This document shows positions 5,601 to 61,318 of a stretch of DNA of 64,000 nt, one piece after another. The stretch covers positions 36,732,774-36,796,773 of the forward strand of contig NC_092385.1 of NCBI RefSeq assembly GCF_030028105.1, written 5' to 3'. Made by a program: the position numbers and the translations under genes. This DNA comes from Mobula birostris. Its lineage: Eukaryota. A model generated the notes under the pieces. That model was given only the letters and a program-made list of their open reading frames with translations. It was not told where the DNA came from and ran no database searches. Numbering within the stretch: position 1 is the first letter of the stretch; each line of letters starts with the position of its first letter.

Positions 5601-5801
5601 AACACACATCAAAGTTGCTGGTGAACGCAGCAGGCCAGGCAGCATCTGTAGGAAGAGGTGCAGTTGACGTTTCACGAAGGGTCTCGGCCTGAAACGTCGA
5701 CTGCACCTCTTCCTACAGATGCTGCCTGGCCTGCTGCGTTCACCAGCAACTTTGATGTGTGTTGCTTGAATTTCCAGCATCTGCAGAATTCTTGTTGTTT
5801 G
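5601..5801. mobile_element. PLE-derived fold-back mini-element with collapsed hammerhead core
   Basis: Near-perfect ~70-bp inverted arms (5601-5672 vs 5691-5763) plus a ~38-nt tail on the right; perfect 14-bp TSD caatctgatatggt at 5587-5600 and 5802-5815. Confidence 0.88.
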
Positions 5802-7684
5802 CAATCTGATATGGTTCTGCCTTGCTCACTCTTGTACTAGGCTATCCCTAAGCATCCCTCACTGAGAACTCCCTCTGCAGCTTGCTGTACATGTCCATCA
5901 AGTTGGGTGTTTGTAGGTCAGGGGTTGGAGGAAAACTGATCCTAAAAATAATAATGAGATTGTGCCACTTAGTTCAACAGGACACTCGAATCTTTGGCCT
6001 TCCAGTTTCAGAAAAATCCCTGCACCATCCCCTCGTACACATAAATGCATTTTATTCCAAACGTTGCAGGAGCATACACAGAAAATTATGTCAGCATATA
6101 TTTGGGCAAACTTGCAGTTTATTTTTAAATTGTATGCCTTTATTAATGCAAGATGTCAGCTAAAAAAACGTATTTTAAAATAGATTCAGCATAATACTAC
6201 AATGACATTTCATTAAATTTATAGCGAGTGTTAGAGCTATAAATACATCAGCATGTTAAATTTATTCTACTGCCTTAGAACGCAGCTTATTTTTGCAAAT
6301 TTCCACCTTAATATTGACCTCAGGAGATTACTGTGATTACTTTGAGGCTACAAAATTAGAAATGTCTAGCACCATTCAAAGTCTGTTAGAAAGATTGTGG
6401 CATTTGAAGGAAATTACTTATGTGAAATACTAATCTGCAAAAAGCATATCCTTTCTGCCCTTCTAAAATTTGTTTGTCATAGATTGATAGAGCAATATGG
6501 CATGAATGCTGGCCCTTTGGCCCAATGGGTCCATGCCAGCCTTGGGTCCACTCAGTTAAAGCCAATTTTTGTAAAAGGGCCGACAAGTACAAAAAAAAAG
6601 AAGAAATTGTCTTCTTTATTCCTAATGGATGGAAAAGGTTCAGGCTTAAGTTTTAATTAGAAATATAATTATTTGGCGGATGATCAGATTCTCTGGGGCA
6701 TACAGATTGGCCCGTTTTGGTGTAGTGATTGATTGCAGTTCAGAAATAAATTCATCATGAGGGATTATTTTTTAATTGGCTTTTGACAATAAAAGTTGTG
6801 TTATGAATAAACATAGTAAAATACATTTTGTTTGAAGATCATAGTAGGTATTTACTAATCAGGGATATTCACTCCTTGAGTTAATTTGAAAAAACATCCT
6901 TGATTTGGGCAATGGTGGTAAGGCTAGCAGTTACTGCCCATACTTGTTTGTCACTGAGAGACAAGAAACTGGATTGAAAATGAACAGCATTTTCTCAATC
7001 CAGTTAGAGTCCAATGGAGACTGCTGGAGGAATAGCACGTTTCTGTTGTGTCTAATTACCTTACTATGGAGCCTTCCAGATGCCACAGTGACAATGTCAG
7101 CTGGTATCAGTCTGCACTCCCCACCACTGGTCATTGCATGGAGTCTAAGGCTGTCAGTTTTGCAATGATCCCTACTGGCAACCCACATTGTGATAATTGA
7201 TTGGACTATGCAGCGTGCGAATTGTGGTTGCAGTTCACACTAAAAATATCCATTTCTTTGTTGGGGTTATCTGACTCCTACCTTACTAGGGGGTGAAGTA
7301 CCGGTCCTGTGAATCAGTTTAGACTGAACCTACTGAAAGCAGGTGCTTGATATTTTAGAATTACCTCTATGATTGATTGATGTCGCCAGTGTGCACATCA
7401 TTGGTAATTCTTCTGATCATTTAAAAAAAAATTGCTGTCAACTCTGTCATTGTGCCTAGCAGGCAAGATTCCTGAGTTGCGAGGGTTAATGGGTGACTTG
7501 ACATTAGATTTTGTATAGTTCTAGTAAAGCACCAGTTTAGCGCTAGTAAAAGATCTGTGGCATTTCCCTAGGCTCATCTGTCTTCCTCTTTACCCTTTCC
7601 TTTCTTTGGCTTCAGCATGCTTACTTTGGATCTGAACTCCACATTTCTGTCTTTTCCTTGAAGAAACATATCATGAACATATTA

Positions 7685-8390
7685 TAGAGCCATAGAAACA
7701 GGCCCTTTGGCCTATCCAGTCCATGCCGAAATGTGCACCACGGACCGGTTTAATATTGACAATATTCTTGCGGACCGGCCAACGGGGGTGGGGGGGTGTG
7801 TGGGGGTGGAGAGCGTGTTCAAGTTCAACAGTGCGTGACAGGGAATGAGGAAAGGTGCAGCTGACTCATAGTGTTTCATATTGCCAAATCATATTATTTC
7901 CTCATGGCCCGGTGGCGCATGCTTTGTGGCCCAGTACCGGTCCGTAGCCGGTGGTTGGGGACCACTGCTTTAGACCACCTGCTGGAACATAGCCCTGCAT
8001 ACCCCTCCCATCCATGTACCTACTGAAACTTCTCTTAAATGTTGCAGTCGAACCTGCTTCCATCACCTCTACTGGCAGCTTGTTCTACACTTGCACCACC
8101 ATATAAGTAAAGAAGTTTACCTCTCAAATTCCCCTTGTGTATTCACCTTCCACCCTTAACCTATAACTTCTAGTTCTAATCTCACCCAAACTCAGTAGAA
8201 AAGGTCTGCTTGCATTTGCCTGATCTAAACCCCCCTCATGATTTTGTCCCCCTCTATGAAATCTCTCCTCATTCTCCTACACTCTGGAATGAAGTCCTAA
8301 CCTATTCAACTTTATCCTGTAACTCAAGTTCTTATGAAGTATCTTGTGAAGTTTGCCGTTTGCCTTTGAACATCGGCAACATTTTGAGAA
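7685..8390 (-). mobile_element. CR1-type LINE 3' fragment interrupted by a hAT MITE
   Basis: Reverse complement of CR1 3' UTR and RT C-terminus (catagaaacaggccctttggcc...; taacttctagttcta...). Confidence 0.7.
7735..7967. mobile_element. hAT-Charlie-like MITE, left end missing
   Basis: Ends ggttggggaccactg (reverse complement CAGTGGTCCCCAACC, a Charlie-type TIR) followed by ctttagac, resembling the nTCTAGAn target; repeated ggaccgg/ccggt subterminal motifs. Confidence 0.7.
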
Positions 8391-10315: not shown

Positions 10316-10565
10316 CAATTCATCAGAGCAGCAAGGATCATCTAAACCCCCGTTAACCTCCTCCAATATGACATCACGAATACTGCTACGGCAGCAGCTC
10401 ATGCGTGAGCAAATGCAGGAGCAGGAGCGACGAGAACAGCAGCAACAGCAGCAGGCAGCACAGTTCATTCAGCAGCGAGTGCCAGTCAGCCAGACACAGG
10501 CCATCAACGTCAGTGTCCCCACCAACCTGCCCACAAATACTCAGGTGCCAATGGAAGTCCTCAAG
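10316..10565 (+). CDS. MITF: MITF internal coding exon 1B1b (common N-terminal exon of non-M isoforms), phase 2 in / phase 0 out
   Basis: Acceptor catcacag|C at 10315/10316 and donor AAG|gtacag at 10565/10566; 250 nt. Translates (S)NSSEQQGSSKPPLTSSNMTSRILLRQQLMREQMQEQERREQQQQQQAAQFIQQRVPVSQTQAINVSVPTNLPTNTQVPMEVLK, colinear without gaps with human MITF SSAEHPGASKPPISSSSMTSRILLRQQLMREQMQEQERREQQQKLQAAQFMQQRVPVSQTPAINVSVPTTLPSATQVPMEVLK (recalled). Closer to MITF than to TFEB/TFE3. Internal ATG at 10368. Confidence 0.96.
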
Positions 10566-13500: not shown

Positions 13501-13721
13501 TTGTCTGTGGATCAGAAAATATGATCAGTTATATTACTTTCATATATTAGAATGTTTTTAACTATTCTTTCACTGATACTGATAGGTATTGATATTCATT
13601 CTTCCATGGCATAGCATTTCTATTCCAGTCTGAAGATTCATTCATCTGTGATCTGCTTATTTACATCTTGCCAGGAAGTCTTGAAGAGCTACTTTTTGTC
13701 TTTCAAAGCCCTTTGAAATCC

Positions 13722-14094
13722 AAGGCAACACACACAAAATGCTGGAAGAACTCTGCAGGTCATGCAGTATCTATGGAAATAAATAAACAGTCCATGTTTC
13801 GGGCAGAGACCCTTCTTCAGGACTGAAAGGAAGGGGGAAGATGCCAGAATAAATAGGTGGGGGCGAGGGGGAGGAGGCTAGCTAGAAGGTGATAGGTTCT
13901 AGCCAGCCCCCTTCCCCTCTCCCCACCTTTTTATTTTGGTGTATTCCCCCTTCCTTTCCAATCCAGAAGGCCCTCGGCCTGAAACGTCATCTTGTTCATT
14001 CATTTCCGTAGATGCTGCCTGACCTGCTGAGTTCCTCCAGCATTTTGTGTGTGTAGCTTTGGATTTCCAGCCTCTACAGACGTTCTTGTGTTTA
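13722..14094. mobile_element. PLE-derived fold-back element with two inverted hammerhead-like motifs
   Basis: Inverted arms of ~165 bp and tail on the right; 13-bp TSD ccctttgaaatcc at 13709-13721 and 14095-14107. Minus-strand motif cagtc-CTGAAGA-agggtctctgccc-GAAACATG-gactg at 13788-13825. Confidence 0.88.
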
Positions 14095-14770
14095 CCCTTT
14101 GAAATCCTGACTTTTCTCAGGTGTTAATCTAATGTACTAGAGAAGTAGGAGTGGTGTGGCAGTGAAATGATGTAACTCATTCCTGCAGTTTTAGTAATTT
14201 GAGAAATTAGTAATAGCTAGCTTTAATAGCAAATCTAATTGAAATTATAAAGCACTTAAAACAATGTTCAGCCTGAGGTGTTCATGAGATACTTGACAAC
14301 ACATAAGCCAGTATTATGCCAATTTGAATCACCCCATGTGATACTAAGAAATGTTTGAAAGCACCCATATGAAAGTAACAATGGATCCAGCAAACATTTC
14401 GGATGCAGTGCTGAAATCTGCAGTCCAGAATAGTTTCCATTTCCAATAAAGCTTTTCCAGAACAGCTACAACATGGGTAGAAATCTAAATTCTGTATACA
14501 TATTTTACCAGTGTGGTCGACCACACTGTTTCATACGTTATTCTGTTCTGCTGCAAACTGAAATTAAATGAAAATACTGCACATGGTGGTTTAGTCTGCA
14601 GTCAATTTCAGTGGTGGCAAGAAGTCTAATGGCTATAAACTTAATTGCTTAACTGTGCCAGTTTTCTAGCTGGTGAAGGGTGGAGGGACTAGGGCCATGT
14701 GCTCTGGTGTAAACAGAATGGTGCTGGGGAGGTAGAGGGAAGGGTGTCAGGTAGGGAAGGAGATTTGGAG

Positions 14771-15631
14771 CTTTCCACAGGGATTGCTCCCTATGCGACT
14801 CCCTTGTCCATTTGTCCCTCCCCACTGTCTTCCCTCCTGGTACTTATCATTGTAAGCAGAACAGGTGCTGCATTTGCCCCTACACCTGCTCCCTCACTAC
14901 CATTCAGGGCCCCAAGCAATCCTTCCAAGTGAGGCAACACTTCACCTGTGAGTCTGTTGGAGTCATATACTGTGTGCGGTGCTCCTGGTGTGGCCTCTTG
15001 TATATCAGTGAGACCTAACATAGATTAGGAGACTGCTTCGCCGAGCATCTATGCTCCGTCCACCAGAACAAGCGGGATCTCCCAGTGGCCATCCACTTTC
15101 CATTCCTAATCTGATATGTCCATCTATGGCCTCCCTTACTGTCGGGATAAGGCCACACTTAGGTTGGAGGAACAATACCTTATATTCTGTTTGGGTAGCC
15201 TCCAACCTGATGGTATGAACATACATTTCTGAAACTTCCCATAATGCCTTCACCCCTTCACCATTTCCCATTCCTTTGTCCCTCTCTCATGTTATCTCCT
15301 TGCCTGCCCATCACCTCCCTCTGGTGCTCCTCCACTCCTTCCCCCTTTTTTTCATTTTTCCATGCCTTCTGTTTCTTTCATCAATCAGCTTCCTAGCTCT
15401 TTGCTTCATCCCGTCCCCTCCCAGTTTTACCCATCGCCTGGCGTTTCTCTCTCTCCTCCCAGCACCTTTGAAATCTACTTCTCAGCTTTTTTTCTTCAGT
15501 CCCGCAGAAGGGTTTTGGTCCGAAACGTCGACTGTACTTTTTTCCATAGATGCTGCCTGGCCTGCTGAGTTCCTGCAGCATTTTGTGTGTGTTGTTTGGA
15601 CTTCCAGCATCTGCAGATTTTCTCTTGTTTG
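14771..15631 (+). mobile_element. 5'-truncated Penelope-like element (Neptune-type): Cys linker, GIY-YIG endonuclease remnant, 3' UTR, hammerhead relic
   Basis: ORF 14812: GTYHCKQNRCCICPY...HFTCESVGVIYCVRCSWCGLLYISET (GIY-YIG), continuing to LEEQYLIFCLGSLQPDGMN; motif at 15497-15534; probable TSD agatttggag (14761-14770) / agacttggag (15632-15641). Confidence 0.88.
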
Positions 15632-16720
15632 AGACTTGGAGTGGAATCCTTCCTAAAGTTGGTGTGGGAGGTGATCGGAATTAGAGGGTTTATTCATTCA
15701 GTTGGGATCTGGTTGTGTGCTTCTTGGGGCTGTGGGGATGAGGATCAGGACGTGGGGGGCCAACTTCTTCTGGTTGAGGTAGGGTGTCGAAAGAGGGATT
15801 GTGCCAAATATTGCAATGAAGGTAAAAATTAATGTTTAGGTGAGCACTGGGGTGATTGGAATTTAAGAGCCCTTGTAGCCCTTAGCCTTGAGGGATCCCA
15901 GGGTTGTGCAGGAGGGGCAGGGGGATTGTTGTCCAGGATACTTAAGGAAAGATTTAGATACTGTTATAAAATATAATGGTTTGTTTCTTCAATTGTTGGA
16001 TTAGCCATCTGGTGAAACACTCCCAAAGTGCTATGTTTTGCAAGTTCCAGATTTTTAGATCCATTGATGATCTCCCTTGTTTTTACCTACATGTGAAAGG
16101 GCATGTGGGACATCGGTTGCCTTCCCATGTGAAAGACTGCTCCCTCACTATTAGAGGACAAAAGCAATAGAGTTGGATTTGAATCCACATCCTTTTGCAG
16201 TTGATGATAACATTGCCTAGATTAGAAATCAGTAGTGATGAACACTTGCACTAAAATGTAGACTGGAAGATTAATTATCTGTTTGGTCTGATTGCTTGAT
16301 AATTCCATATTGATTAATTGCAGTGTTTTAAAATGTTTCTTATTTAAATCCATCTAATGCCCTATCTGCAATCCCCTCCTTTGTATTGTTGTTTCTGAAT
16401 AGTAGTGACAATTTGATTTACATTTTCAGGGGAGTGAAAATGAAAGGAAATAGTTTGATGTTCAGTGTATTCCCCATTCTCTGCAAACAAAAGGAATTCT
16501 TGCCATTTGTTTGTTCAATTTGTTTTTCATCTAACATCAAACACAGCAGGGAATGAGTCTTTACTCTCTGCAAGCTTGGTGACGTCAGTTAATGAAACAT
16601 CCTTGAATGTTCCTTCATAATCCAGAAGGGGAATAATTATGGCCTTTATCCCTGACCAAAAATATGCTTCCCAGTCCTGGTCAACAGATTACATTGCAGA
16701 GAGTTTATGTTGCTATCCTA

Positions 16721-17212
16721 CACTCAGTGGCCATTTTATTAGTTTTCTATTGACCACTGAGTGTATGCTGCTGTAGTCTATCCCTTTTAAGGTTTGATGC
16801 ATTGTGCATTCAGAGATGCTCTTCTGCACTCCACTGTTGTAACGTGTGGATATTTGAGTTACTGTCAGCTTGAATGAGTGTGGCCATTCTCCTCAGGGCT
16901 CTCTCATTAACAAGGCATTCTGCACTCACTGGATGTTTTTCTTTGCACAGTTCTCTGCAAACTCTAGAGACTGTTGTGGGTGAAAAAATCCCGGGAGATG
17001 AGCAATTTCTGAGATACTCAAACCACCCCGTCTGGCACTAACAATCATTCCATGGTCAAAGCCACTTAGATCACATTTTTTCTCCATTCTGATGTTTGGT
17101 CAGAACAACAACTGAACTTCTTGACAATATCTATATGCTTTCATGCATTGAGTTGCTGCCACTTAGATATTTGCATTAACAATGCACCTAAGATTGAGAT
17201 ACATTGAGTATA
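16721..17212 (-). mobile_element. Non-autonomous Tc1-like DNA transposon
   Basis: TA followed by TIR cactcagtggccattttattag; body similar to 37637-38743; degenerate right TIR (cattgagtata) hit by a PLE insertion. Confidence 0.75.
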
Positions 17213-17213
17213 T

Positions 17214-17440
17214 CCAATCACAAACAAAAGAAAATCTACAGATGCTGGAAGTCCAAGCAGCACACAAAAATACAGGAGGAACTTGGGCCAGGCAGCATCT
17301 ATGGAAAAGAGTATGGTCGATGTTTCAGGCCGAGACCCTTCAGAAGACCTGCTGAAGGATCTTGGCCCGAAACGTCGACTGTACTCTTTTCCATAGATGT
17401 TGCTTGACCTGCTGAGTTCCTCCAGCATTTTGTGTGTGTT
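17214..17440. mobile_element. PLE-derived fold-back mini-element (tail on left)
   Basis: Inverted arms meet at ~17348; + motif CTGCTGA-aggatcttggccc-GAAACGTC-gactg at 17349-17381; 14-bp repeat tacattgagtatat at 17200-17213 and 17440-17453. Confidence 0.88.
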
Positions 17441-17957
17441 ACATTGAGTATATATTGTGATGTAAAGTAGCCTGTGGGACATTTTCAAGTCCTACTCCTC
17501 CCTCATCTGCAGTGACACAGAGGGTAAAAATAGGCACCATGCAGCAAACTGTCAGAGAAGAAGACCCTTCCTTAGAGCCTTCATGTCTGTTAAGGTTTCA
17601 CCCAAGCATGGGATACAACAAAAACAAATTCAGTGCCTTTCACTCTTTCACACAGAGAAACAGTGAAGCTCTTCGTGAATGTACTTTTATGAGTTTGAGT
17701 TGCAGTATGTTAATTGTAGTTACTAATGATATGCTCCTCAGAGCACAATTTATCTTAAATGCTGAATGAGCATGGAATATATGTCTTAAACAAAGCATCT
17801 CACACTTTAGAGATGGAATGATTTTACGAGATAACTTACTTATAATTTGTTTCATCTGTGTGAATTTATGTCAGGCCTTTGCCATTTGATATATTCAGGA
17901 GGCCAATTGGTGGGTGCATCAGATGCACATGCTCTATTTGAATAATTATGCTAATTT

Positions 17958-18837: not shown

Positions 18838-19755
18838 CACTGGACAACAAAGATTTTGCTTCCTGAATACCTTTAGGTGTATCTTATGAATTTTCGGCTA
18901 CTGATCGTGAAAATCACCATGAAATTTCCCTAGCACATATCAATTTTTTTAATAAACTTATATTTATTATTTCAATTTGTAATTCAAGTCAATTAAAATG
19001 TTGCCTACAAAGTAAGCTGGAAAGTTTCCTATCTTGTCTAGGCGTGCTTGGGCATGCTTAGGCGGTGCAGCTGCTGCATGGCAGGACAGGTTTTAGTAAT
19101 AATTATAGGGTTCAGGACTGTAAGGATGGAATCTGCTATCACCGGGCACAAAAATTTCTATGAAGGACTTCGATATTTGAGACAGATGCTTCCCAGAATA
19201 ACTGATGCCATGATTAAGGAAAGCATTTTTGTTTGTCCACAAATCAAACAGGTCATCAATGACAGGCAATTTGAAGAATTTCTAGTGGGACTGGAGAAAA
19301 TCACATGGAAGGCATTCAAGGAAGTTGTTGAAATTTTTCTCGGCATCTACAGAGCACCAAACTACATGCAGCTAGTTGAAAAAATGCTTCAAGCATATAA
19401 AACCATGAAATGCAATGTCACTAAAGATTCATTTTCTGCATTCCCATTTAGACTTCTTCCCTGCAAATCTTGGTGCTGTTAGTGACGAGCATGGTGAAAG
19501 GTTTCACCAGAACATTGCAGTCATGGAGAAAAGATACCAGGGCAACTGGAATCCATCAATGCTGACAAATTATTGTTGGATACTTAAGCGAGAAGCCTCA
19601 GACACTGAGTACAAATGAAAGTCATTAACAAAATATTTTTAACTTAGTTGAACTATTGCAAAGCATCAGCATCATTATGCAATTAAACACATTATATTCA
19701 ATAAAAGTTAATTTGTTGTTTCTCCAAATTCCTACGTGATACAAGTAGTCTGTGT
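18838..19755 (+). mobile_element. Chapaev3-like (CMC superfamily) DNA transposon, internally deleted, transposase C-terminus frameshifted
   Basis: Starts tta|CACTGGACAACAAA. ORFs 19048-19482 and 19415-19618 join as ...IKESIFVCPQIKQVIND...AFKEVVEIFLGIYRAPNY...MKCN/MSLKIHFLHSHLDFFPANLGAVSDEHGERFHQNIAVMEKRYQGNWNPSMLTNYCW. Right TIR not found. Family call from recalled motif. Confidence 0.72.
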
Positions 19756-20578: not shown

Positions 20579-20848
20579 CCTAAGCTAGTTCTCCATCACC
20601 TTCTCCAGCTACCTGGGCATGTGTAATTAAGGACGAGCTTTGCCTGTGACACCCACATACTTGAATGAAGTGTTGTTGTACAACAGATTGCTGTTATGCC
20701 ATCAGAATCCTTTTGTGAGCTAAGGTGGAAGTCGTCTGAGCAATTGTACCTTGCCAAATGGCTGGGTCTGAAAGTAAAATGGATCTGGTCACCCTGTAAA
20801 GCATCAGGTCCAGGCTCTGCACAAGTCCACACACCCTGATACTTCACA

Positions 20849-21037
20849 AACATGAGGAAATCTACAGATGCTGGAATTTCAAGCAACATGCATAAAAGTT
20901 GCTGGTGAACGCAGCAGGCCAGGCAGCATCTCTAGGAAAAGGTACAGTCCAAGGGGTATAAGATCACGAAGGATTTCAGGCGGAGACTCTTCGTCGACTG
21001 TACCTCTTCCTAGAGATGCTGCCTGGCCTGCTGCGTT
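20849..21037. mobile_element. PLE-derived fold-back mini-element, same subfamily as 5601-5801
   Basis: Shares diagnostic aaagttgctggtgaacgcagcaggccaggc; arms 20908-20949 / 20996-21037; 16-bp repeat accctgata(c/t)ttcaca at 20833-20848 and 21038-21053. Confidence 0.85.
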
Positions 21038-21226
21038 ACCCTGATATTTCACACTTGTTTTTCAGCTAAGTCTGCCAATACCCCAGTAATGTTACTTACA
21101 CTGCCACCTGAAAATGCTCATCTGAGTTCTGTATGTTAGAAGTAGTTGAAAATCAAGAAGCTGCAATTGCTGGAAATCTGAAATTTAAAAAAAATACAGA
21201 AGTTGCTGTAAGCACTCAACTGGTTA

Positions 21227-23649: not shown

Positions 23650-24355
23650 TTCAGCCCTTTGCTTTCCTCACCTATTACTCTCAGCTTCCTATTCCCGTTC
23701 CGACATGTCAGTCCATGGCCTCCTCTTGTGCCAAGATGAGGCCACCCTCAGGGTGGAGGTACAACACCTTACATTCCATATGGGTACCCACTAACTTGAT
23801 GGCATGAATATTGATTTCTCTTTCTGGTAAAAAATTAATTCCCTCTCCCTCATGTCTTCTTCTATTTCCCACTCAGGACTCTTAGCTCTTCTCACCTGTG
23901 TATCACCTTCCCCTAGGTCCCCTCCTCCTTCTCTTTCTCCTATGGCCCACTCTCCTTTCCTATCAGGTTCCTTCCTCTCCAGCTCTTTACCTCTCCTACC
24001 CACCTGGTATCACCTATCACCGTCTAGCTATACTCCCTCCCTTCCCTCTACCTTTTTATTCTTGCCCTTTCTTTCCAATCCTGAAGAAGGAGCTTGGCCC
24101 AGAACTTTGACTGTTTGTTCATTTCCATAAATGGTGCCCGACCTGCTGAGTTCCTCCAGTATCTTGTTTCTCGCATTGTTCCCTTTTTCTGCCCTCTCTC
24201 CCATCCTCCTGCCTGCAGCTCCTCGTTGGGCTTCACCTATCACCAGCCAGCTCCTACACACACCCTCTCCTTTGCATTCTGGTTTTTGCCCCTTTTCCTT
24301 TCCAGTTCTGATGAAGGGTCTCGGCCGGAAACACTGACTGTTCGTTTGCCTCACT
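23650..24355 (+). mobile_element. Penelope-like 3' region with two tandem hammerhead-like motifs
   Basis: Endonuclease C-terminal remnant (gatgaggccaccctcagggtggag...caacacctt), pyrimidine-rich UTR, motifs at 24076-24113 and 24303-24340. Confidence 0.8.
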
Positions 24356-24954
24356 GTTTGTATTGATGATGCTGCATGCTGAAGTGTGGAACATCAGTGA
24401 ACCTCCACATCAAACTTTATACTATCATCAGCTCCCTTCTCTGACATTGAAGAAGGCTGGATGGGTTCTTCTATCAAGAAAGGTTGAACAAGTTGAGATA
24501 CCACTCATCAAGATTGGAGCCACCTGGCCCCTCAAACCTGCTCTGCCACTTAATATGATCATAGCTGATTATCCCTGGCATCAATCTGCCTTCTGTGCCA
24601 GTACGTGAAAGCCCTCAATGTCTTGATCTTTCAAAAGTTTATCAGCCTCTTCTTTAAATATCTCCATGGTTTAGCCTCTGGAATGTTTCTACATGGTGAT
24701 GACTACTCATGGTATTGGAGTATCTCTAAAGATATGTGGATGATGAATAGCATGGATAGTACAGACTGGATACAACATCATTGAAATGTTCAGGCAGCAG
24801 CAAGCTGGCGTGATGCCTGCGCTAAGGGAACTGTGCATGGGCCAATTTCACATTCCAATTCATGAACTCTTTTAGTGTGTGCAGTAGGTATTCTCCAGTT
24901 CAAAACAACTTGCCTCTTCCAAATAACACCTCAAGAACAACTTTATTACATTGG

Positions 24955-35035: not shown

Positions 35036-35039
35036 AGAG

Positions 35040-37620: not shown

Positions 37621-37636
37621 AAACAGATATAATATA

Positions 37637-38743
37637 CATTCAGTGGCCACTTTATTAGGTACAGGGAGTACAGGGGGTACCTAATAAAGTGGCCACTGAG
37701 TGTATGTTCGTGGTCTTCTGCTTCAAGGTTTGATATGTTGAGCATTCAGAGATGCTCTTCAGCAAATCACGGTTGTAAAGTGTAGTTATTTGAGTTACTG
37801 TTGCCTTCTTATCAGCTTGAACTAGTCTGGTCATTCTTAAGGTTCGAAGTTCAAAAAAAAATTATTATCAAAGTTACATATATGTCATCACATAGTACCC
37901 TGAGGTTCATTTTATTGCAGGCGTTCGCAGTAATTAGGAAGAAACAAAATGGAATCAATGAAAACTGGCATGACAGCAAGGAACAAACAACTAATGGCAA
38001 ATACTAAAAGAAAAGACAGAGAAAAAGAAAATAATAAAAAGCAATAAATATTGAGAACATGAGTTGTAGAGTCATTAAAAGTGAGTCCATAGGTTGTGAA
38101 ATCAGTTCAGTGTTGGGGTGAGTGAAGTTATTCCCTCTGGTTAAAGACCCTGATGGTTGAGGTGTAATAACTATTCCTGAACCTGGTGGTCTCGGAACTG
38201 AGACTCCTTTGCCTTCTTCCAGATGCCAGCAGCGAGAAGAAACATGGCCTGGATGGTGGAAGTTTTTAATGATGGATACTGCTTTCCTGCCAAAGTGCTA
38301 CTTGTAAATGTGTTCAGTGATGGTGAGGGCTCTACCTGTGATGGACTGAGCTGTATCCACAATTTTTGGTAGATTTTTTCCCCCCTTAGACCTCCCTCAT
38401 TAACAAGATTTCACCCACAGAACTGCCACTTACTGGATGTTTTGTTTTTGCTTTTCACACCATTCTCTGTAAGCTCTAGTGACTGTTGCATGTGAAAACC
38501 CTAGGAGATCACCACTTTCTGAGATACTCAAACCACCCGTCTGACACCAACAATCATTCCACTGTCAAAGTCACTTAGGTCATATTTCTTTCCCATTCTG
38601 AAGTTTGGTCTGAATAACAACTGAACCCCTTGACCATGTCTGCATGCTTTTATGCACTGAGTTGCTCTCACATGATTAGCTGATTGGATATCGGCATTAA
38701 CGAGCAGTTGTACAGATGTATCTGATAAAGTAGTCACTGAGTG
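37637..38743 (-). mobile_element. Non-autonomous Tc1-like transposon with transposase N-terminus and an internal third TIR
   Basis: TA-flanked (37635-36, 38744-45) TIRs cattcagtggccactttattaggtac / gtatctgataaagtagtcactgagtg. Minus ORF contains MGKKYDLSDFDSGMIVGVRR (Tc1 HTH start). Confidence 0.85.
37840..38385 (-). mobile_element. Rex1/Babar-type LINE 3' end nested in the Tc1-like element
   Basis: Same 3' UTR as 17958-18345; the Tc1 sequence resumes afterwards (ccctcattaacaag). Confidence 0.8.
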
Positions 38744-41603: not shown

Positions 41604-42475
41604 AATTGAATTGAATTGACTTTATTACTCACATCTTTCTCATACATGAGGAGTAAAAATCTTTATGTTACATCTCTGTCTAAATGTGCAATGTGCAATT
41701 TATAATAATTTGTAATAAATAGTATGTACAACAGGACAGTCAATATAACCTCCATGATCATACTGAATGGCGGTGCAGGCTTGAAGGGCTGAATGGCCTA
41801 CTCCTGCACCTATTTTCTATGTTTCTATGTTCCTAACATAGAAATACAATTGTATCAGTGTGAATTAATCAGTCTGATGGACTGGTGGAAGAAACTGTCC
41901 TGGAGCATGTTGGTCCTGGCTTTTATGCTGTGGTACTGTTTCCTGGATGATAGCAGCTGGAATAGATTGTGGTTGGGGTGACTCGGGTTCCCAAAGATCC
42001 TTCGGGCCCTTTTTACACACCTGTCTTTGTAAATGTCTTGAACCGTGGGAAATTCACATCTACAGATGCGCTGAGCTGTCTGCACCACTCTCTCCAGAGT
42101 CTTGCGATTGAGGGAAGTACAGTTCCCATACCAGGCAGCGATGCAGCCAGTCAGGATGCTCTCAATTGTGCCCCTGTAGAAAGTTCTTAGGATTTGGGGA
42201 CCCATACCAAACTTCCTCAGCTGTCTGAGGTGAAAGAGATGCTGTTGTGCTTTTTTCACCACACAGCCGGTATGTACAGACCACGTAAGATCCTCGGTGA
42301 TGTGTATGCTGAGGAACTTAAAGCTGTTTACCCTCTCAACCCCAGATCCATTGATGACAATAGGGGTTAGCCTGTCTCCATTCCTTCTGTAGTCTACGAC
42401 CAGCTCCTTTACTTTTGGGACATAGAGGGGGAGGTTGTTTTCTTGACAGCACTGTGTCAAGGTGATGACTTCTTC
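41604..42475 (-). mobile_element. Rex1/Babar-type LINE 3' portion with (AATTG)n tail; short CR1 3' end inserted at ~41750-41833 (+)
   Basis: 201-aa minus ORF: KELVVDYRR...VERVNSFKFL...KKAQQHLFHLRQLRKF...FYRGTIESILTGCIAAWYGNC...SFFHQSIRLIN. Confidence 0.88.
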
Positions 42476-43254
42476 AGCAGCTTGGAAGCAGAGAGAAAAT
42501 GATGGCTATAAAGGGTTGAGAGATAACCTTATATGTGTTTGCCCCAATGTGAATAGCAGAACTGTGTCTAGAGAGATAAAGAGAATAGTCATGAGTATGG
42601 GGCAAGACTGCTTATGTGGACTAGGAAATTCAGAGATGCTCTGACATCATTGAATTAGAGAGCAGAGAAACACAAAATGAAAAGGAAATGCATAAAGAAA
42701 AAAATTACAAAAGCTATAAGTGAAAACAGGAGTATATTTTCTAGTTAGCTTTTCAGCAGATGGAAAGTTATAGAAAAAAACTCTCTTGAATCCAGATTGA
42801 TTAACCTTAATATTTTTGACATGGAATATCATCAGTCATAGATTAATTAAGTAGGAAAATCTGTTAAGGGTTCTTCCCAATTTTCTGATTCCATGTACAT
42901 CATCTAATTGTGTTTACAGGGAATTTTGGTATGTAACTCTCTGTTTCTATTCCCAAGTTATGGTAAATGAGATGGAAACTGAAACCCACAATGACGCAAG
43001 GGACTCATAGCTAATCAAGTTCTGCTAACTGAAGTGTACTTGCATTATTTGAACTTTTGTCTCTTTGTCAATCCCTTACTTGTGTTCTGATGAAAGATCT
43101 TAAGCCTTGAAATATTCACCATCTGTACTGATGCTGTTTGATTTGCTGAGATTTTCTTGTGTATGTTGCTTTTTCCAATTTTTATTATCTGCAAAATCTT
43201 AATTTCTTCCATCAAGTTTATCTCAATTTCTATTTACATTGTTACCTTGAATTG

Positions 43255-44345
43255 CTGATGAGACATAACCATCTTGACTTCAGCACTCCTGTCTCCTCCT
43301 CAAACTTACCCCTTCTGAACACACTGCCCTCCACTCTCTCTGCACCAATCCAAATCTTACCATCAAACTGGCAGACAAAGGGGATGCTGTTGTAGTGTGG
43401 CGGACTGATGCCTACATTGTTGGGGTCAGCTAGTAACTCTCATACACCTCCTCATACCTACCTCTTGACGCGATTCCAGACCATCAGAAATCTGTCTCCA
43501 ACACCATCACTGACCTCGTCGCTCCCATCCACTGCCGCCAAACTCATAGTTCACTTGCCCTGCACTGATTGCTTCTATCTCCTACTCAAAATCCACAAAC
43601 CTGACTATCTCGGTAGGCCCATTGTCTCTGCCTGCTCCTGCTCCACTGAACCCATGTCCTCATACCTCAACTCCATTATATCTCCCTTTGTTCAGTTCCT
43701 TCTCACCTACATCTGCAAAACTTTTCATGCTCTCAGTTTCCTCACTAACTTTCAATTCCCTAGTTCTGACCACCTCATCTCCACCGTGGATGTCCAGTCT
43801 CTGTACACTTCTATCCCCCATCAAGAAGGCCTTAAAGCTCTTTGCTTCTTTCTTAATAAAAGAACCATCCGGTTCCCGTCTACCAGCACCTTCCTCCGAC
43901 TGGCAGAACTGGACCTCACCCTTAAAGATTTTTCTTTCAGCTCCTCCCATCTTCTCCAGACACGAGGCAGCCATGGGCACCCGCATGACCTACAACTATC
44001 CTTGCCTTTTCATTGGATATGTAGAACAGTCCATGAGCTTGTCAATTTCATCAACTTTGCCTCCAACTTCCACCCTCCTCTTACGTTCACTTGGTCGATT
44101 TCTGACACCTCCTTCCCCTTTCTCGATCTCTGTCCCTTTCTCCATCACTGAGATAAACTGTTGACCAACATCTTTTATAAATCCACTGATTCACACAGTT
44201 ATTTTGACTATACCTCTTCCCACCCTGCCTCCTGTACAAATGCTATTCCCTTTTCTTATTTCCTCGCCTCCATTGCATCTGTTCCCAGGATGTGGCCTTC
44301 CTTTTTAGGACATCAGTGATGTCCTCCTCCTTCAAAAAACAGGCA
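43255..44345 (+). mobile_element. Penelope-like element reverse transcriptase remnant (Neptune-type)
   Basis: NPNLTIKLADKG (PLE DKG motif), LLKIHKPDYLGRPIVSAC, DVQSLYTSIPH (motif A), AMGTRM (motif B'), NFHPPLTFT...PFLDL (D/E). The YxDD segment is missing at ~44035. Confidence 0.9.
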
Positions 44346-44384: not shown

Positions 44385-45055
44385 CTTGATACGCATTTCC
44401 ACTGTGCTACGACCTATCTTCCCTATATTTCCACAGTTTCTGGAAGGATCACCGGGATCCTGAAGAAATACTGGATTAATACCATCCACAAACCCGTAAG
44501 GAAGCTCAGGTCACAGCTTATGCAGGTCAAAGATGACATGGGACTCAGGTGGGCAGAGCAATGTATATCAATCAGACAGGATGCATGATAGAAACCCACA
44601 TCAAGGAGCACAGGAGGTGTATCCATTTGGGTTACCCGAAGAAACCGGTGGTAGCAGAACATTGCATTTGCAATGGCCACAGGATTGACTTCGATGGCAC
44701 AAAACTACTGTGCCGTGCCAATGGCTTTTGTGATCACTTGGTGAAGGAAGCCATTGAAAAAAAACTAGAGGATAAGAATTTTAATGAAGATGAAGGTCTC
44801 GCTCTAAATAAGAACTGGAATTCGATTGTAAACAAAGTGGAAGAGCAGAAGCCTGATTGAATGAGGTCTAACCAATCAGGAGGGACAGAATGCAGGGATA
44901 TAAATAACATCAGCCCAGACACGCCCAGGCATCATCTCTGAAGAAGATGGCAGAGCTTGTCCTTGAAACGTCGGTTATAATCGATACCTGTACCCGGCTT
45001 GAAGCCTGAGAAGAGTTTATTTGCCATATATGCTGGGAAAGCACTAGATCTTTTT
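44385..45055 (+). mobile_element. Penelope-like element 3' end, Poseidon/Penelope-type GIY-YIG remnant and 3' UTR
   Basis: LPYISTVSGRI...HKP; YINQTGCMIETHIKEH...VAEHCICNGHRIDFD...KEAIE...NFNEDEG; followed by a hammerhead motif. Confidence 0.85.
44936..44974 (+). ncRNA. Minimal type I hammerhead ribozyme motif with intact catalytic core
   Basis: CTGAAGA (44938-44944), helix II gatggcag/ttgtcctt (one mismatch), GAAACGTC (44965-44972) with palindromic ACGT helix III and GUC cleavage triplet. Helix I is only ~2 bp. Confidence 0.62.
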
Positions 45056-47857: not shown

Positions 47858-49136
47858 TAGTCAGCATGGCTTTGTCAAGGGCAGGTCATGCTTTACGAGT
47901 CCGATTGAATTTTTTGAGGATATGGCTAAACACATTGATGAAGGAAGAGCAGTAGATGTAGTGTATATGGATTTCAGCAAGGCATTTACCCCATGCAAGG
48001 CTTATTGAGAAAGTAAGGAGGCATGGGATCCAAGGGGACATTGCTTTGTAGATCCAGAACTGGCTTGCCCACAGAAAGCGAAGAGTGGTTGTAGACAGGT
48101 TATATTCTGCATGGTGGCCGGTGACCAGTGGAGTGCCTCAGGGATCTGTTCTGGGACCCTTACTCTTCGTGATTTTTATAAATGACCTGGATGAGGAAGT
48201 GGAGGGATGGGTTAGCAAGTTTGCTGATGACACAAAGGGTGGAGGTGTTGTGGATAGTGTGGAGGGCTGTCAGGAGTTACAGTGGGACATTGTTAGGATG
48301 CAAAACTGGGCTGAAAAGTGGCAGATGGAGTTCAACCCAGATATGTGTGAAGTGGTTCATTTTGGTAGGTCAAATATGATGGCAGAATGTAATATTAATG
48401 GTAAGACTCTTGGCAGTATGTTGGATCAGAGTGATCTTGGGGTCTGAGTCCATAGGACACTCAAAGCAGCTCCGCAGGTTGACTCTGTGTTTAAGAAGGC
48501 GTTTGGTGTATTGACCTTCATCAATCGTGGAATTGAATTTAGAAGCCGAGGAGTAATGTTGCAGCTATATAGGACCCCGGTCAGACCCCACTTGGAGTAC
48601 TGTGCTCAGTTCTAGTCACCTCACTACAGGAAGGATGTGGAAACCATAGAAAGGGTGCAGAGGAGATTTACAAGGATGTCGCCTGGATTGGGGAGCATGC
48701 CTTATGAGAATAGTTTGAGTGAATTTGGCCTTTTTTCCTTGGAGTGACGGAGGATGAGAGGTGACCTGATAGAGGTGTATAAGATGCTGAGAGGCATTGA
48801 TCATGCGGATAGTCAGAGGCTTTTTCCCAGGGCTGAAATGGTTGCCACAAGAGGACACAGATTTAAGGTGCTGGGGAGTAGGTACAGAGGAGATGTCAGG
48901 GGTAAATTTTTTACTCAGAGAGTGATGAGTGCATGGAATGGGCTGCTGGCAATGGTGGTGGAGGCAGATACGATAGGGTCTTTTAAGAGACTTTTAGATG
49001 GGTACATGGAGCTTAGTAAAATAGAGGGCTATGGGTAAGCCTAGTAATTTCTAAGGTAGGGACATGTTTGGCATAACTCTGTGGGCTGAAGGGCCTGTAT
49101 TGTGCTGTAGGTTTTCTATGTTTTCTATGTTTCTAT
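47858..49136 (+). mobile_element. CR1-type LINE, 5'-truncated, RT domain and 3' UTR
   Basis: QHGFVKGRSC, VDVVYMDFSKAF, SGVPQGSVLGPLLFVIFINDL, KFADDTK, MRGDLIEVYKML, FFTQRV; (TTTCTATG)n tail; several stops and frameshifts. Confidence 0.93.
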
Positions 49137-51056: not shown

Positions 51057-52051
51057 GAATTAATCAACAAATACTTTGGACAAATTCTAAAGCCACATTC
51101 TCCCTTAAATTGTTGAAAATCAAAAATAACTGCAGATGCTGGAAATTTGGAAATCTGAAAATGCACATAACATTCAGTTGATCAGGCAGCATCTGTGGAA
51201 TGAGTTAATATTTCATGATATTGTAGAAAAAGAGAATTTGCAATTATAGAGAGAGTGGTGGGGGATGGATAGTGCAAAGTGAATGTCCCTATTGGGCGAG
51301 GCCAGGTTGCTCTGAGAATAGATGGAGCCACAGACAGGAGAAAATCTGCAGAGACCCTTCATCAAGACTGGAAAAAAAAAGATGTGAAGTCAGAACAAGA
51401 AGGTGAGGGGAGGTGAGGAAGAAGTACAAGCTGGTAGGTGATAGGTGAGACCGGGAGGGGTGAAGTAAAGAGCTGGGAAGCTTATTGGTGAAAGAGATAC
51501 AGGGATGGAGAAGGGGAAATTTGATAGGAGTGGGTACCTTCTTACTCTGAATTCTCATCTTTTTTTCCAGTCCTGATGAAGGGTCTTGGCCTTGGTCAAC
51601 TGTTTACTCTTTTCCATAGATGCTGCCTGGTCTGCTGAGTTCCTCCAGCACTTTGTGTGTGTTGTTAATGAATCCATGTAGTTGATAGGTTCACAAAACT
51701 GCTGGACAAGAGAAAGAACACAAACAAAGCTTAATCCACTATAAACTATGAGGTTATCCTCACAGCAACCTGGCCTCACTTATCAGAGACATTCACTTTG
51801 CACTATCCATCCCTTACCACTCTTTCTGTAACTTTAAACAAACTTTACGTTCTCTTTCCCTATTCTCATATAACATCATGTACCATAACCTGATATAACA
51901 GTTAACATCATTATTAACTCGTTCCACAATTGCTGCCTGACCCACTTGCATTTACAGATTTCCAAATTTCCAGCATCTGCAGTTGTTTAGAATTTTCAAC
52001 AATTTAAGAGAAAATGAGTCTTCAGTATTTGTTTGAATTTGTTGATTAACT
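51057..52051. repeat. ~1-kb diverged inverted repeat (arms ~51057-51325 and ~51755-52051)
   Basis: For example ttaaattgttgaaaat...aactgcagatgctggaaatttggaaatctg is mirrored by cagatttccaaatttccagcatctgcagtt...attttcaacaatttaa; gtgcaaagtgaatgtc is mirrored by gacattcactttgcac. Confidence 0.88.
51331..51665. mobile_element. Younger PLE fold-back element nested in the loop of the 1-kb palindrome
   Basis: Minus arm with internal deletion (51331-51535); + motif cagtc-CTGATGA-agggtcttggcct..gtc-aactg at 51568-51602 lacking GAAAC. Confidence 0.8.
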
Positions 52052-52919: not shown

Positions 52920-53997
52920 CAGACATCCCACCCTGCAAAAACTCATTTCAGGGAGGTAGCACCACCACCCCTGCCCCCTGCAACCCCATATCCACCCCCG
53001 CCCCAGTCAACCTCCAAGGGTGTATGTATACAGGATGTTTGATTATGAATGAACACAATTTATTTGATCACATATTGAAACTATTTACACACACACACAT
53101 ACATATATATATTCCTTGTTGAGTATTTCGTTGGCAGTCTCAATGCTAATAGCTAAATCCTAATGCAGATAGCTTTTCTATTTCTTTTGCAAACTTTCCA
53201 TGTACTGTGATGTGGCTTGCTTGGCAGATTTGAGCATTTTGCCGGAAGTCTCAACCTCATAGCAGTCTGTGTCAATTTATTTGTTAATTTTGCAAGACAT
53301 CAGATTCACAAGATTCTCTATTATATTATAATATATTATCATGGAGTTGCTTTTTATTCTATTACAACTTTAAGCAGGTCTACAGGGAGTTTGGTCTCAT
53401 CACGTAGGACATCAATAGAGTAACCCTTTAGCAGCTAGACAGCTAGTTTAAATAATGTTAGCTGTGCTAATGAATGAATGACACCTGTTAAACTCACCTC
53501 AACCTGTCTTTTACAGTCATTTAACCCGCTATGCACAATAGAAAAGTCACTGTTGCAAACAGTGCAGCGAGCAAAACTGTCATTATTTTTGATCCCTATT
53601 AGGCAGGGGTACACTTTAGTGTAGTCTGGGGTGAAGTACGTTTTATATTTTCTTTTTTTGGAACACTGTGCCACGGCGCCACAGGACAATAAACTGAACT
53701 GATGGACAATGAAAGAGAGAGAGAAGTTGACTGTAAAGCCCGCCCACAGAGAAAACTGATAGGTCTACTTAGCACAAAGAGAGACCAATTAGGATTCATT
53801 CATATTCTCTCTCATTCTCTCATTCTCTCTCTTTCTCTCTCTCTCCCCGCCCCCCCCCCCCCTCGCTCGCGCTCTCGCTCTCCATCTCGCTTCCAAATAA
53901 TCGATTTCCGGGATATTGTGTATAATTTGCGGGCGTCAGGAAGCCACTAGCAATATGCGGGAGACTCCTGGAACTTCCGGGAGAGGTGGTATGTCTG
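52920..53997 (-). mobile_element. Non-autonomous hAT-family DNA transposon with BED zinc-finger exon remnant, 6-bp TSD
   Basis: 13-bp TIR cagacatcccacc / ggtggtatgtctg; TSD cagtag at 52914-52919 and 53998-54003. Minus ORF KKRKYKTYF...ARCTVCNSDFSIVHSGLNDCKRQVE ends at donor GAG|gtgagt (~53497). Confidence 0.82.
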
Positions 53998-54022
53998 CAG
54001 TAGGGGAATTCTAGGCAGTTTA

Positions 54023-55655: not shown

Positions 55656-56282
55656 TATAGTAAAATGTCTGTCCACAGCCTTCTCTACGGTCACATTGAG
55701 GCCAGAGGTAGATCAGAGGAGCAACAGCTTGATTTCTGTCTTGGTAGTTTCCAACCTTATGCATCCACAACACTGATTTCTCTAACTTCCAATAACCACT
55801 CCTCAATCCTTCCCTGTTTTCCCTTATCCCTGTGGCCCTTTACCCCTTCTCTTTCCCTGCCCCATCCTCACGACCTGCCCATTACCTTCACCTTTTTCGT
55901 CTGGTTGCTTATCATCTTCCCCTTAATCCATGGTCTGTTGTCCACTTCTGTCAGATTCCTCCTTCCCCAGCCCTTTGCCTTTTTCAGCTATCACCTCCCA
56001 TCTTCTCACATCATTCCCACTTCCCCCTCTATCCCTCCTACCTACCTTCCCCCTCTCACCTGGACTCACCTGTCACCTACCAACTGGTGATCTTTCCTTT
56101 CCTCCACCCTTTCATTCTGGTTTCTGCCCTCTTCCTTTCCACTCCTGGAAAAAGGGTCTTGGTCCGAAATGTCAACTGTTCATTTCCTTCCATAGATTCT
56201 GCTTGACCTACTGAGTTTCTCCAGCATTTTGTGTCTGTTTCTCCAGATTTCCAGCATCTATAGTCTCCCTGGTGTCTCTGTA
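55656..56282 (+). mobile_element. 5'-truncated Penelope-like 3' end with degenerate hammerhead motif
   Basis: MSVHSLLYGHIEARGRSEEQQLDFCLGSFQP (endonuclease C-terminus); motif at 56140-56178; 13-bp repeat tggccactacttc at 55643-55655 and 56283-56295. Confidence 0.8.
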
Positions 56283-59412: not shown

Positions 59413-59840
59413 AAGTTTACTTTTCTTTGAAAAATTACCTAGAATTGGACCTACTCTGAGGATTAAGTCTAATTGTAACTCAGTTGATCCTTCCTTTAAG
59501 AAATGTGCCTGAACTCACTCTTGTGTAACCCAAGTCTAGAAAGATAAAGACAAGTAAAGTTGGGTTTAGGTGATGAAGACATAGGCCAGAACAAGTGGCA
59601 CTTTGCAGTGAGACTAATGATGTCAGGTGATGTTAATAATAAAAACCAGAGGGACATTTGTCCTGTTGCCCACAAGATGACACCCTCAAATATACTTTGC
59701 ACTTAGGATTTTGAACATGCGTTTGGACACGTTGTCTTGATCAAGACCACTTGCTATGATGTAGAGTAAAGATCTGCCCATACCTAACACATGCTATAGA
59801 AGAATATTCACACTCACAAATCATCCTTCAGTCTCCCTAA

Positions 59841-60874
59841 CAAGAGAAAATCTGCAGATGCTGGAAATCTAAGTAACACACACAAAATGCTGGAGGAAAT
59901 AAGCAGGTCTTACAGTATCTGTGGAAACGAGTACCAATTGATGTTTTCGGGCTGAGACTCTTCAGCTGGACTGGAGAAAAAAGGTTGAGGAATCAGAGTT
60001 AGTGGGTGGGGGGAAGGGAGAGAAACACAAGGTGATAGGTGAAACTGGGGGAGGGGTGGGGTGAAGTAAAGAGTTTGGAAGCTGATTGGTGAAAGAGGTA
60101 CAGGGCTGGAGAAGGCAGAATCCAATAGGAGAGAACAGAAGGCCATGGAAGAAAGGAAAAGAGGGAGGAGCACCAGAGGAAGGCAAAGGGCAGGCCAGGA
60201 AATGTGAGAGAGGAAAAAGGGGATGGAGAATAGAGAAGCGGGGGAAGGTAAAGGCCCAAAGTAGATTGGGAGACTGTTTCACCGAACACCTATGCTCCGT
60301 CAGCCAGAAGAAGTGGGATCTCCCGGTGGCCACCCATTTTAATTCCACTTCACATTCCCATTCCAACATGTTCATCCATGGCTTCCACTGTTGTTGTGAT
60401 GAGGCCACACTCGGGTGGAAGAGCAACGCCTCATATTCCATCTGGGTAGCCGCCAACGTGATGGCATGAAACTTGATTTCTCGAACTTCCGGCAATGCCA
60501 CCCCCACCTTCTCCATCCCCTTTACCCTCTCTCACCTGATCTTCTGGTCTGCCCACCGCCTCCCTCTGGTGCAGTTCCCCTTTTTTACTTTCTTCCATGG
60601 GCCTCTGTCCTCTCCTATTAGATTCCCCCTTCTCCCGCCCTGTATCCCATTCACCAATCAACTTCTCAACTCTTTACTTCACCCCTCTCCCCACCCACCC
60701 AATTTGACCTATCATCTTGTGTTTCTCCCTCCCCATCCCCACCCTCTAACTCTTGACTCCTCGTCTTTTTTTTCTCCAGTCCTGCTGAAGGGTCTCAGCC
60801 TCAATCGTCGACTGTACTCTATTCCACAGATGCTGCCTGGCCTGCTGAGTTCCTCCAGCATTTTGTGTGTGTTG
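59841..60874. mobile_element. Penelope-like element with inverted pLTR arrangement
   Basis: Minus arm 59841-~60245 (with tail); plus arm ~60250-60874 with RLGDCFTEHLCSV...DLPVATHFNSTSHS; hammerhead relics at 59935-59973 (-) and 60777-60814 (+); perfect 15-bp TSD cttcagtctccctaa at 59826-59840 and 60875-60889. Confidence 0.92.
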
Positions 60875-61089
60875 CTTCAGTCTCCCTAAATGAGATTTCC
60901 AACATAATAGTAATTTTAGGGGAGAGACACCCATACAGTCTCAGAGAGAGAATGTTCAAACTTCCCCGGACAGTACCTGATTGAAACCAGGTTACTGGAG
61001 CTGGGAAGCAGCAGCTTTACTTCCTATACCATTTTGCTACAAAGTTTTCTTACTATGCAAGCAATTTTTAAAAACTTGTTAATTGAACT

Positions 61090-61318
61090 GCAGCCAGTGG
61101 TGCAGCTGGCAAACAGCTGGAGGAACTCATTAAGTTGAGCAGCATCTATGGGGGGAGTGTGGTGTTAGAAGGAATGGTTGACGTTTCAGTTCAAAACTCT
61201 GTATCCTGATTACCTGAAATGCTTACAATTCCACTCCCCCTGCAGATGCAGCTTGACCTGCTGAATTCCTCCACGGGTCATTTGTTGCTCCACATTCCAG
61301 CATCTGCAGCCTCTTATT
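61090..61318. mobile_element. Older PLE-derived fold-back mini-element
   Basis: ggaggaactca...gcagcatct / agatgcagc...tgaattcctcc arms; centre has gacgtttc...ctga...gaaatg; right tail ttccagcatctgcag. Confidence 0.7.

Follow-up and report, generated by a model that had tools for sequence, protein, structure and literature searches.

The 64,000-nucleotide (nt) stretch of the Mobula birostris genome that was analyzed here (contig NC_092385.1, positions 36,732,774 to 36,796,773 of the forward strand, RefSeq assembly GCF_030028105.1), referred to as the window, contains a 38-nt sequence that recurs within the MITF gene, and this raised the question of what the repeated unit is and whether it acts as a ribozyme. 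A preliminary description had listed the unit at 16 coordinates, where the sequences proved to be as stated, and had proposed that it is a minimal type I hammerhead ribozyme (min-HHR) located in the pseudo-long terminal repeats (pLTRs) of Penelope-like elements (PLEs). Our analyses indicated that the motifs are very probably decayed 3' ends, truncated at their 5' side, of a highly abundant Neptune/Nematis-type PLE with a minimal type I hammerhead in its pLTR. The hammerhead is predicted to be a weak cutter, acting as a dimer or with the aid of the PLE's own protein, and the window copies are likely to be inert.

Copies were identified with nhmmer (cutoff, E ≤ 0.01) using a unit model of 136 positions, comprising the 38-nt hammerhead motif and the tail that follows it. 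A total of 22 matches were detected in the window, 19 of which overlapped the 38-nt motif, and no match was observed in a reversed 1.2-Mb control. These matches overlapped 15 of the 16 listed sites, while the remaining site, at 43087, was matched at an E value of 0.0027 by a model seeded from the window. All 16 sites were PLE 3' ends, consisting of the hammerhead plus a 100- or 135-nt tail. Grouping of the copies gave approximately 13 insertions, of which 8 were head-to-head pairs with one unit per strand, and 13- to 15-bp flanking duplications were present at 5 of these 8 pairs. The sites described earlier as about 15 scattered motifs were therefore real but corresponded to approximately 13 insertion events, several of which had been listed by one arm or strand. 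The matches were distributed between the strands at 13 plus to 9 minus, a bias that is uninformative. Core plus cleavage triplet was retained in none of the 10 window copies spanning the whole motif; the other 12 matches were truncated or only partly aligned. A generic type I descriptor gave no match in the window, and the earlier statement that every copy here carries a lesion was borne out. Rfam detected no hammerhead in the window at E ≤ 5 and gave subthreshold matches only, nearly all of them to microRNA families over fold-backs, which were rejected as hairpin artifacts.

The carrier of the unit was examined in a sample of 120 systematic 10-kb stretches from contigs C1 and C3 to C9 (1.17 Mb, with 30 kb masked) and in the window. 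In 30 of 41 tblastn high-scoring segment pairs (HSPs), with several loci yielding more than one HSP, a unit was located 240 to 416 nt downstream of the end of a GIY-YIG endonuclease on the same strand, and one further endonuclease HSP had a unit 1,362 nt downstream. Of 10,239 candidates for a young reverse transcriptase (RT) query, 150 were scored as matches, and their open frames reached up to 991 amino acids; 20 loci (L198 to L217) were picked from these matches for their long frames. Every one of the 20 had a unit at the 3' end. Five also had a unit joined to the start of the open reading frame (ORF), and four of these five included hammerhead sequence; two of the 5'-joined units began upstream of the motif, while others began within it, at positions 6 and 23, or in the tail. 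Hammerhead sequence was present at both ends, approximately 3.5 kb apart, in L199, L200, L202, and L214, and in near-full-length elements the unit was found twice, approximately 300 nt downstream of the endonuclease stop and approximately 175 nt upstream of the likely ORF start. These results agreed with the assignment of a minimal type I hammerhead to PLE pLTRs.

A single ORF encodes the RT followed by the GIY-YIG domain, with a length of 958 amino acids in L200 (RVT_1, E = 4 × 10^-5; GIY-YIG, E = 0.0048; both below the curated Pfam cutoffs). The two domains are joined by a C-X4-C-XX-C linker, which reads CKRNKCYTC in L198 and L200 and occurs in degraded form at approximately position 14850 of the window; a CX2-5CxxC linker is a mark of Neptune and Nematis elements (Craig et al. 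2021, PMC8557442). Insertions of endonuclease-bearing (EN+) PLEs are described in the same report as exhibiting 5' truncation, partial tandems, an adjacent inverted truncated copy, and a one-sided 30- to 40-bp tail, and the family studied here has all of these in common with them, the tail, inverted truncated copy, and partial tandem having been observed directly. A PDB search with the PLE RT gave no matches. The copies at L198 to L217 are young, with open frames of 824 to 991 amino acids and a proline/serine-rich stretch ahead of the RT, which suggests recent activity.

The family has the complete core of a hammerhead (CUGANGA, GAAA, and the UH triplet), in contrast to its copies in the window. 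The topology is type I, with a 4- to 5-bp helix I, (C/T)AGTC/GACTG, closing the motif in 14 descriptor matches in the sample; of the cagtc/gactg helix proposed earlier, the gactg side was upheld, but the youngest subfamily begins with U (TAGTC). Helix II, A-GGG(U)/(G)CCC, has the G10.1-C11.1 pair and one nucleotide separating position 9 from position 10.1, a layout found equally in other families that share the core, and the ggg/ccc helix described earlier can also be represented as a 4-bp stem, GGGU/GCCC, capped by a CUCG loop. There is no monomeric helix III, and positions 15.2 to 16.2 form the palindrome ACGU. Min-HHRs have been described in the pLTRs of metazoan PLEs, including those of fish, coelacanth, Xenopus, and reptiles; the fish Xena, Poseidon, and Neptune PLEs carry them, with X. 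tropicalis containing approximately 9,000 and coelacanth approximately 4,000 (Cervera and De la Pena 2014, PMC4209133). The motif studied here resembles these in its core, the single nucleotide between 9 and 10.1, the G10.1-C11.1 pair, the palindromic 15.2 to 16.2, and its pLTR position, as well as in occurring mostly as single dispersed copies of truncated PLEs with some close opposite-strand pairs. It differs in its short helix II, which is 3 to 4 bp in length compared to 7 to 8 bp in Schistosoma.

An exact 35-nt intact pattern was present in 5,734 copies genome-wide (2,854 + 2,880), with none in the control, and this count agreed with the sample (2 seen versus 1.7 expected). It replaced a first exact pattern whose 266 copies were an undercount because the young family begins with TAGTC. 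The sample contained 207 units, which made up approximately 1.75% of its bases and corresponded to 7.1 × 10^5 units (bootstrap, 6.0 × 10^5 to 8.3 × 10^5) in the 4.01-Gb genome, an extrapolation that rests on the sampled contigs. The core and helices were intact in 14 of the 207 units, while approximately 93% (193/207) were broken or truncated. In a separate run on the sample, the generic descriptor gave 14 matches, compared to 1 in reversed sequence and 0 in five Markov controls, and descriptor-intact copies extrapolated to approximately 4.8 × 10^4 (2.6 × 10^4 to 8.1 × 10^4) genome-wide. The very large hammerhead population suggested by the preliminary description is thus present, although most of it is defective. 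The intact count of about 5 × 10^4 in 4.0 Gb is higher than those in PMC4209133, for which a different descriptor was used, and cartilaginous fish are not named in main-text portions of that paper, its supplement aside. Apart from a one-species retrozyme preprint, our search found no publication dealing with PLE hammerheads of sharks or rays; most subscription journals and supplements lay outside this search, which is hence no proof of absence. The kind of ribozyme is already known from PLEs, and the addition made here is an elasmobranch genome with a very high copy number.

Decay was compared by mismatch rates in 105 motif-spanning copies belonging to three clusters. At non-CpG positions, the rates for core versus tail were 0.042 versus 0.034 in the young cluster (34 copies) and 0.115 versus 0.145 (61 copies) and 0.178 versus 0.157 (10 copies) in the other two, and CpG sites decayed most (0.17 to 0.58). 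Inserted copies decay neutrally, mostly at CpG sites, and the core is no better preserved than the tail. Among the cluster consensuses, the motif was constant except for N7 and CpG-type changes while the tails differed, which indicated constraint, yet no compensatory helix change was detected within the main family, either among variants changed at both positions of the inner helix I pair or by comparison of the clusters. The double-variant search gave 758 matches versus 7 in the control; among 100 matches listed of the 758, most were mutated main-family copies and none was compensating, and a compensating subfamily was rejected. Shorter-spacing core-only patterns gave 535 matches versus 158 in the control.

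Covariation was evident across families. Rows were selected by the core only, and 13 equal-spacing loci were retained of 20 fetched from the shorter-spacing matches, with 7 excluded as other lengths, main-family variants, or likely chance matches. In helices I and II of these 13 loci, 85% of the cells were paired, compared to 28% to 52% in slid controls, and 8 of 10 pairs exhibited a double-sided change. The helix I/II covariation that had been put forward as a check was consequently absent within the family, whose motif is invariant, but present across other families sharing the core. The loci L232 to L248 (centre, approximately 1501 to 1534) contained at least three or four additional families of hammerheads that share the core but have helices of their own. 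Selection would act on the active element and not on inserted copies, as a core that decays like the tail suggests.

The manner of insertion was examined by mapping 58 young copies in 1.68 Mb (identity of ≥88%, reaching the tail, and away from locus edges), of which 3 were from the window, one was an apparent duplicate, and 6 extended to the upstream end of the model. The 5' ends of 26 of 56 copies at risk lay within the motif (positions -3 to 36). For the 40 nt immediately upstream the figure was 6 of 30 (Fisher P = 0.02), and for the region further upstream it was 0 of 24 (P = 1 × 10^-5). Copies retained sequence on either side of the cut site. The 3' ends clustered at positions 101 to 103 (33/207) and 133 to 135 (66/207); the unit model itself stops near 135, and breakpoints and duplications confirmed the second cluster. 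Head-to-head pairs had one long and one short tail in 16 of 16 cases (P = 1.3 × 10^-5), with 12- to 15-bp duplications at 13 of the 16, and the arm reaching further upstream could be either the long- or the short-tailed one. Private changes were shared by the two arms in 3 of 18 candidate pairs, compared to 80 of 2,320 nonpairs, and were A to G in two. Those A-to-G changes, common to both arms and in or beside the motif, were located at L108:4487-4724 and L075:6388-6854. They give a hint of possible adenosine-to-inosine (A-to-I) editing of a common template, although the numbers are very small and conversion after insertion is an alternative.

In the Anolis Poseidon PLE, PAc, two RT start sites define the tail, and both target strands undergo cleavage and extension in vitro (Frangieh et al. 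2024, PMC11167929). From these properties, taken together with the long-plus-short pairs, we infer that each of the two nicked strands acts as a primer. PAc chiefly uses uncut RNA as its template, and its hammerhead requires protein for cleavage and is not needed for insertion in vitro. The family studied here is similar in its two tail ends, a seemingly uncut template, and probable both-strand priming. PAc differs in belonging to the Poseidon clade and in having an ORF that begins inside the hammerhead, whereas the likely start here is approximately 175 nt downstream, and the portions of that article consulted make no mention of a long-plus-short rule for head-to-head pairs. The description of EN+ PLEs in PMC8557442 is qualitative and, in the portions consulted, does not mention clustering of junctions in the hammerhead.

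Folding of four intact copies predicted a rod that pairs the core and is 3.6 to 5.4 kcal/mol below the helix I plus helix II fold, while the ACGU self-duplex reached only -1.7 kcal/mol. Single-strand folding gave no z-score support for the hammerhead, and cofolding, which produced a rod dimer, was set aside as the method is unable to represent the active dimer. The rod fold of the monomer fits the reported lack of cleavage by single min-HHRs and weak cleavage by dimers (PMC4209133), as well as the reported protein dependence of the Anolis hammerhead (PMC11167929). A head-to-head pair gives a hairpin and no dimer partner because the second unit is antisense; the fold-back at 5610 to 5755 formed such a hairpin at -139.5 kcal/mol (z, -23.7).

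A sequence of events can be proposed for these observations. The copy ends at approximately +100 and +135, which follow the known PLE "tail" pattern, would represent two reverse-transcription start sites, and the template RNA would usually be uncut at the copied hammerhead, given the sequence flanking the cut site on both sides. Both nicked target strands would prime, one per start site, and the two cDNAs would be joined, often inside the self-complementary motif. Our tentative proposal, which is possible though on the improbable side, is that the PLE nicks the strands approximately 14 bp apart and makes one cDNA per start site on one uncut RNA, with the hammerhead serving as a stop-and-join site and not as a cutter; near-perfect hairpins, some from A-to-I-edited RNA, would then occur by the tens of thousands in introns. 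The pile-up of 5' ends might instead mark the start of the element RNA, given by transcription initiation or by a 3' splice site at the helix I front, with no stall or join at the folded motif. This alternative is plausible but rather doubtful: 17 of the 58 young 5' ends lie at -5 to +12, a pyrimidine tract and AG precede helix I in both subfamilies, and the 5' end of helix I marks the end of the PLE intron in D. virilis (PMC4209133), but the 5' ends are spread across the whole 40 nt, with 10 more at 16 to 34, no common upstream exon was found in the inspected flanks of unpaired copies starting there, and 30 of the 58 copies extend beyond the site. That the hammerhead cuts in vivo and sets the 5' end of the transposition RNA, with intact sense copies also cutting host pre-mRNAs at scale, appears unlikely. 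Only 2 of the 26 motif-internal 5' ends are at the cut site (positions 33 to 35), against a uniform expectation of 1.9, none of five near-full-length 5' ends begins there, no window copy of the unit is intact, and head-to-head motifs would form hairpins and not dimers; moreover, single min-HHRs did not cleave in PMC4209133, and no Anolis reads started at the site (PMC11167929). Cutting would be favored by the large number of descriptor-intact copies extrapolated from the 14 in 1.17 Mb, by the cross-family covariation, which shows that the fold is selected in active elements, and by cleavage of the related Anolis hammerhead once protein is added.

Replication of the short units as an independent nonautonomous family (retrozyme, short interspersed element, or miniature inverted-repeat transposable element) is suggested by the many copies that are 150- to 250-nt palindromes with duplications and by the non-LTR retrozymes of one chondrichthyan (bioRxiv 10.64898/2026.07.22.740005), which are likewise PLE derived and carry a type I hammerhead. 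We consider this very unlikely, as arm lengths and junctions differ pair by pair (-554 to +43) and form a continuum with ends that bear the endonuclease. As defined in that preprint, retrozymes are head-to-tail tandem repeats with consecutive intact hammerheads, whereas the present copies are truncated ends of an autonomous element, either solitary or arranged head to head; a search aimed at tandems was not made, but none of the window copies is complete, and none forms the two or more consecutive complete hammerheads in tandem that define a retrozyme. Chance likeness to a hammerhead in an ordinary repeat end would accord with the missing Rfam match, z-score support, and within-family compensatory change, but it is hardly tenable when several unrelated families share the core, bulge, G10.1-C11.1 pair, and ACGU with different paired helices and when the descriptor matches exceed those in the reversed and Markov controls.

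Several points weigh against the interpretation of the motifs as the 3' ends of a hammerhead-bearing Neptune/Nematis-type PLE and against the proposed mode of insertion. The excess of 5' ends over the adjacent upstream 40 nt is modest (P = 0.02), and copies beginning downstream of the motif are short and underdetected. The covariation set consists of approximately four related groups and excludes the main family, its related rows inflate the shuffle test, and a search upstream of its families gave no endonuclease match that would mark them as PLE ends. The putative clade placement follows from the linker motif. The window copies are relics; as a family they have every sequence feature of a min-HHR, and both cleavage and the activity of the intact form are predicted from this likeness to known hammerheads.

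The individual window copies exhibited various states of decay. A young head-to-head fold-back at 5601 to 5801 has a plus arm from motif position 9 with the long tail and a minus arm from position 25 with the short tail, flanked by a 14-bp target-site duplication, and neither arm has a whole hammerhead. In the pair at 13714 to 14092, the minus unit (13714 to 13825) has kept the core and lost the GUC triplet, while the core of the plus unit (13960 to 14092) is deleted, with a 13-bp duplication. A PLE 3' end on the plus strand at 14700 to 15628 comprises the degraded CX4CxxC linker and GIY-YIG endonuclease, the 3' untranslated region, and a unit at 15497 to 15628 with a broken CUGANGA. The pair at 17224 to 17447 (17224 to 17343, minus; 17345 to 17447, plus) has a 14-bp duplication and broken or truncated cores, and that at 20847 to 21059 (both strands) has a junction rearranged within the motif. 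Two plus-strand units follow: the one at 24076 to 24168, downstream of a PLE endonuclease remnant, has a broken GAAA, and the one at 24303 to 24379 has kept CUGANGA and GAAA and lost the cleavage triplet and one helix II pair. Broken cores and a 15-bp duplication were found in the pair at 31285 to 31506 (both strands), and the unit at 43084 to 43171 (plus; E = 0.0027) is old and strongly decayed. Nested inverted PLE ends occupy both strands at 51080 to 52032, with a unit lacking GAAA at 51568 to 51668 (plus) and half a motif at 51348 to 51382 (minus), and CUGANGA is broken in the plus-strand unit at 56140 to 56275. The pair at 59834 to 60905 (59840 to 59973, minus; 60777 to 60905, plus) has longer 3' ends with an endonuclease remnant, broken cores, and the 15-bp duplication CTTCAGTCTCCCTAA. 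An old decayed pair lies at 61111 to 61311 (both strands).

A PLE RT fragment at 43396 to 44151 (plus) has 63% identity to the RT of a young copy in L041 (Pfam RVT_1, E = 0.085, below the cutoff). It is followed by a second PLE family at 44537 to 44972 (plus), with an endonuclease-like end at 44537 to 44857, in which Pfam gave no GIY-YIG match, and its own hammerhead at 44938 to 44972 (plus). This hammerhead, which the earlier site list had overlooked, has a complete core and GUC, a longer helix II with one mismatch, and a weak helix I (approximately 2 contiguous pairs); no other window motif was found to have both the whole core and the GUC, and the hammerhead lies in the sense orientation relative to MITF. 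Core-intact forms of the family with a 7- to 8-bp helix II gave approximately 350 matches genome-wide versus 11 in the control and follow a different endonuclease.

The coding part of a MITF exon was detected at 10368 to 10565 (plus; Pfam PF15951, E = 1.4 × 10^-20), and further MITF exons on the plus strand start approximately 33 kb past the window end, where the basic helix-loop-helix leucine zipper exon scored 87 bits with MITF versus 74 with TFE3 and 57 with TFEB. On the basis of these exons, 20 of the 22 unit matches lie between two identified MITF exons, so that the reported location in MITF introns held for most copies, but within one stretch, from 10368 to 10565 to the next found exon approximately 87 kb downstream, rather than several. 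Core-intact units occur further on in the same intron at L250:8696 (plus), L251:5319 (plus), and L251:4902 (minus), and both sense units, L250:8696 and L251:5319, have helix I mismatches. The pyrimidine tract and AG at the helix I front (15485 to 15499, 51556 to 51570, and 60765 to 60779 in the window; L041:8695-8712) resemble a 3' splice site, and sense copies could be cryptic acceptors in MITF. Other repeats in the window included a palindromic repeat at 37632 to 37707 and 16716 to 16768, which is probably a small DNA-transposon derivative (Rfam mir-9256, below threshold at 58 versus 80 bits), and RT fragments of other long interspersed elements (LINEs) at 41855 to 42505 (minus), 62070 to 62510 (plus), and 48052 to 48447 (plus), the first of which yields an ALKBH8_N Pfam match that is likely a spurious one to LINE C termini. 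Transposase-like ORF remnants were seen by eye at 19042 to 19482 and 53435 to 53764 (minus) and had no Pfam match.

There was no sign that the copies matter to MITF, and their effect on this host gene is most likely nil. For the PLE family, the genome offers intact natural substrates, identical and numbering in the thousands, on which in vivo cutting by PLE hammerheads could be tested, and the strict long-plus-short pairing within a 12- to 15-bp duplication allows the second-strand step of PLE integration to be tested at the genomic level. If the hammerhead is indeed a stop-and-join site, these stubs would constitute a genome-scale fossil record of PLE integration.

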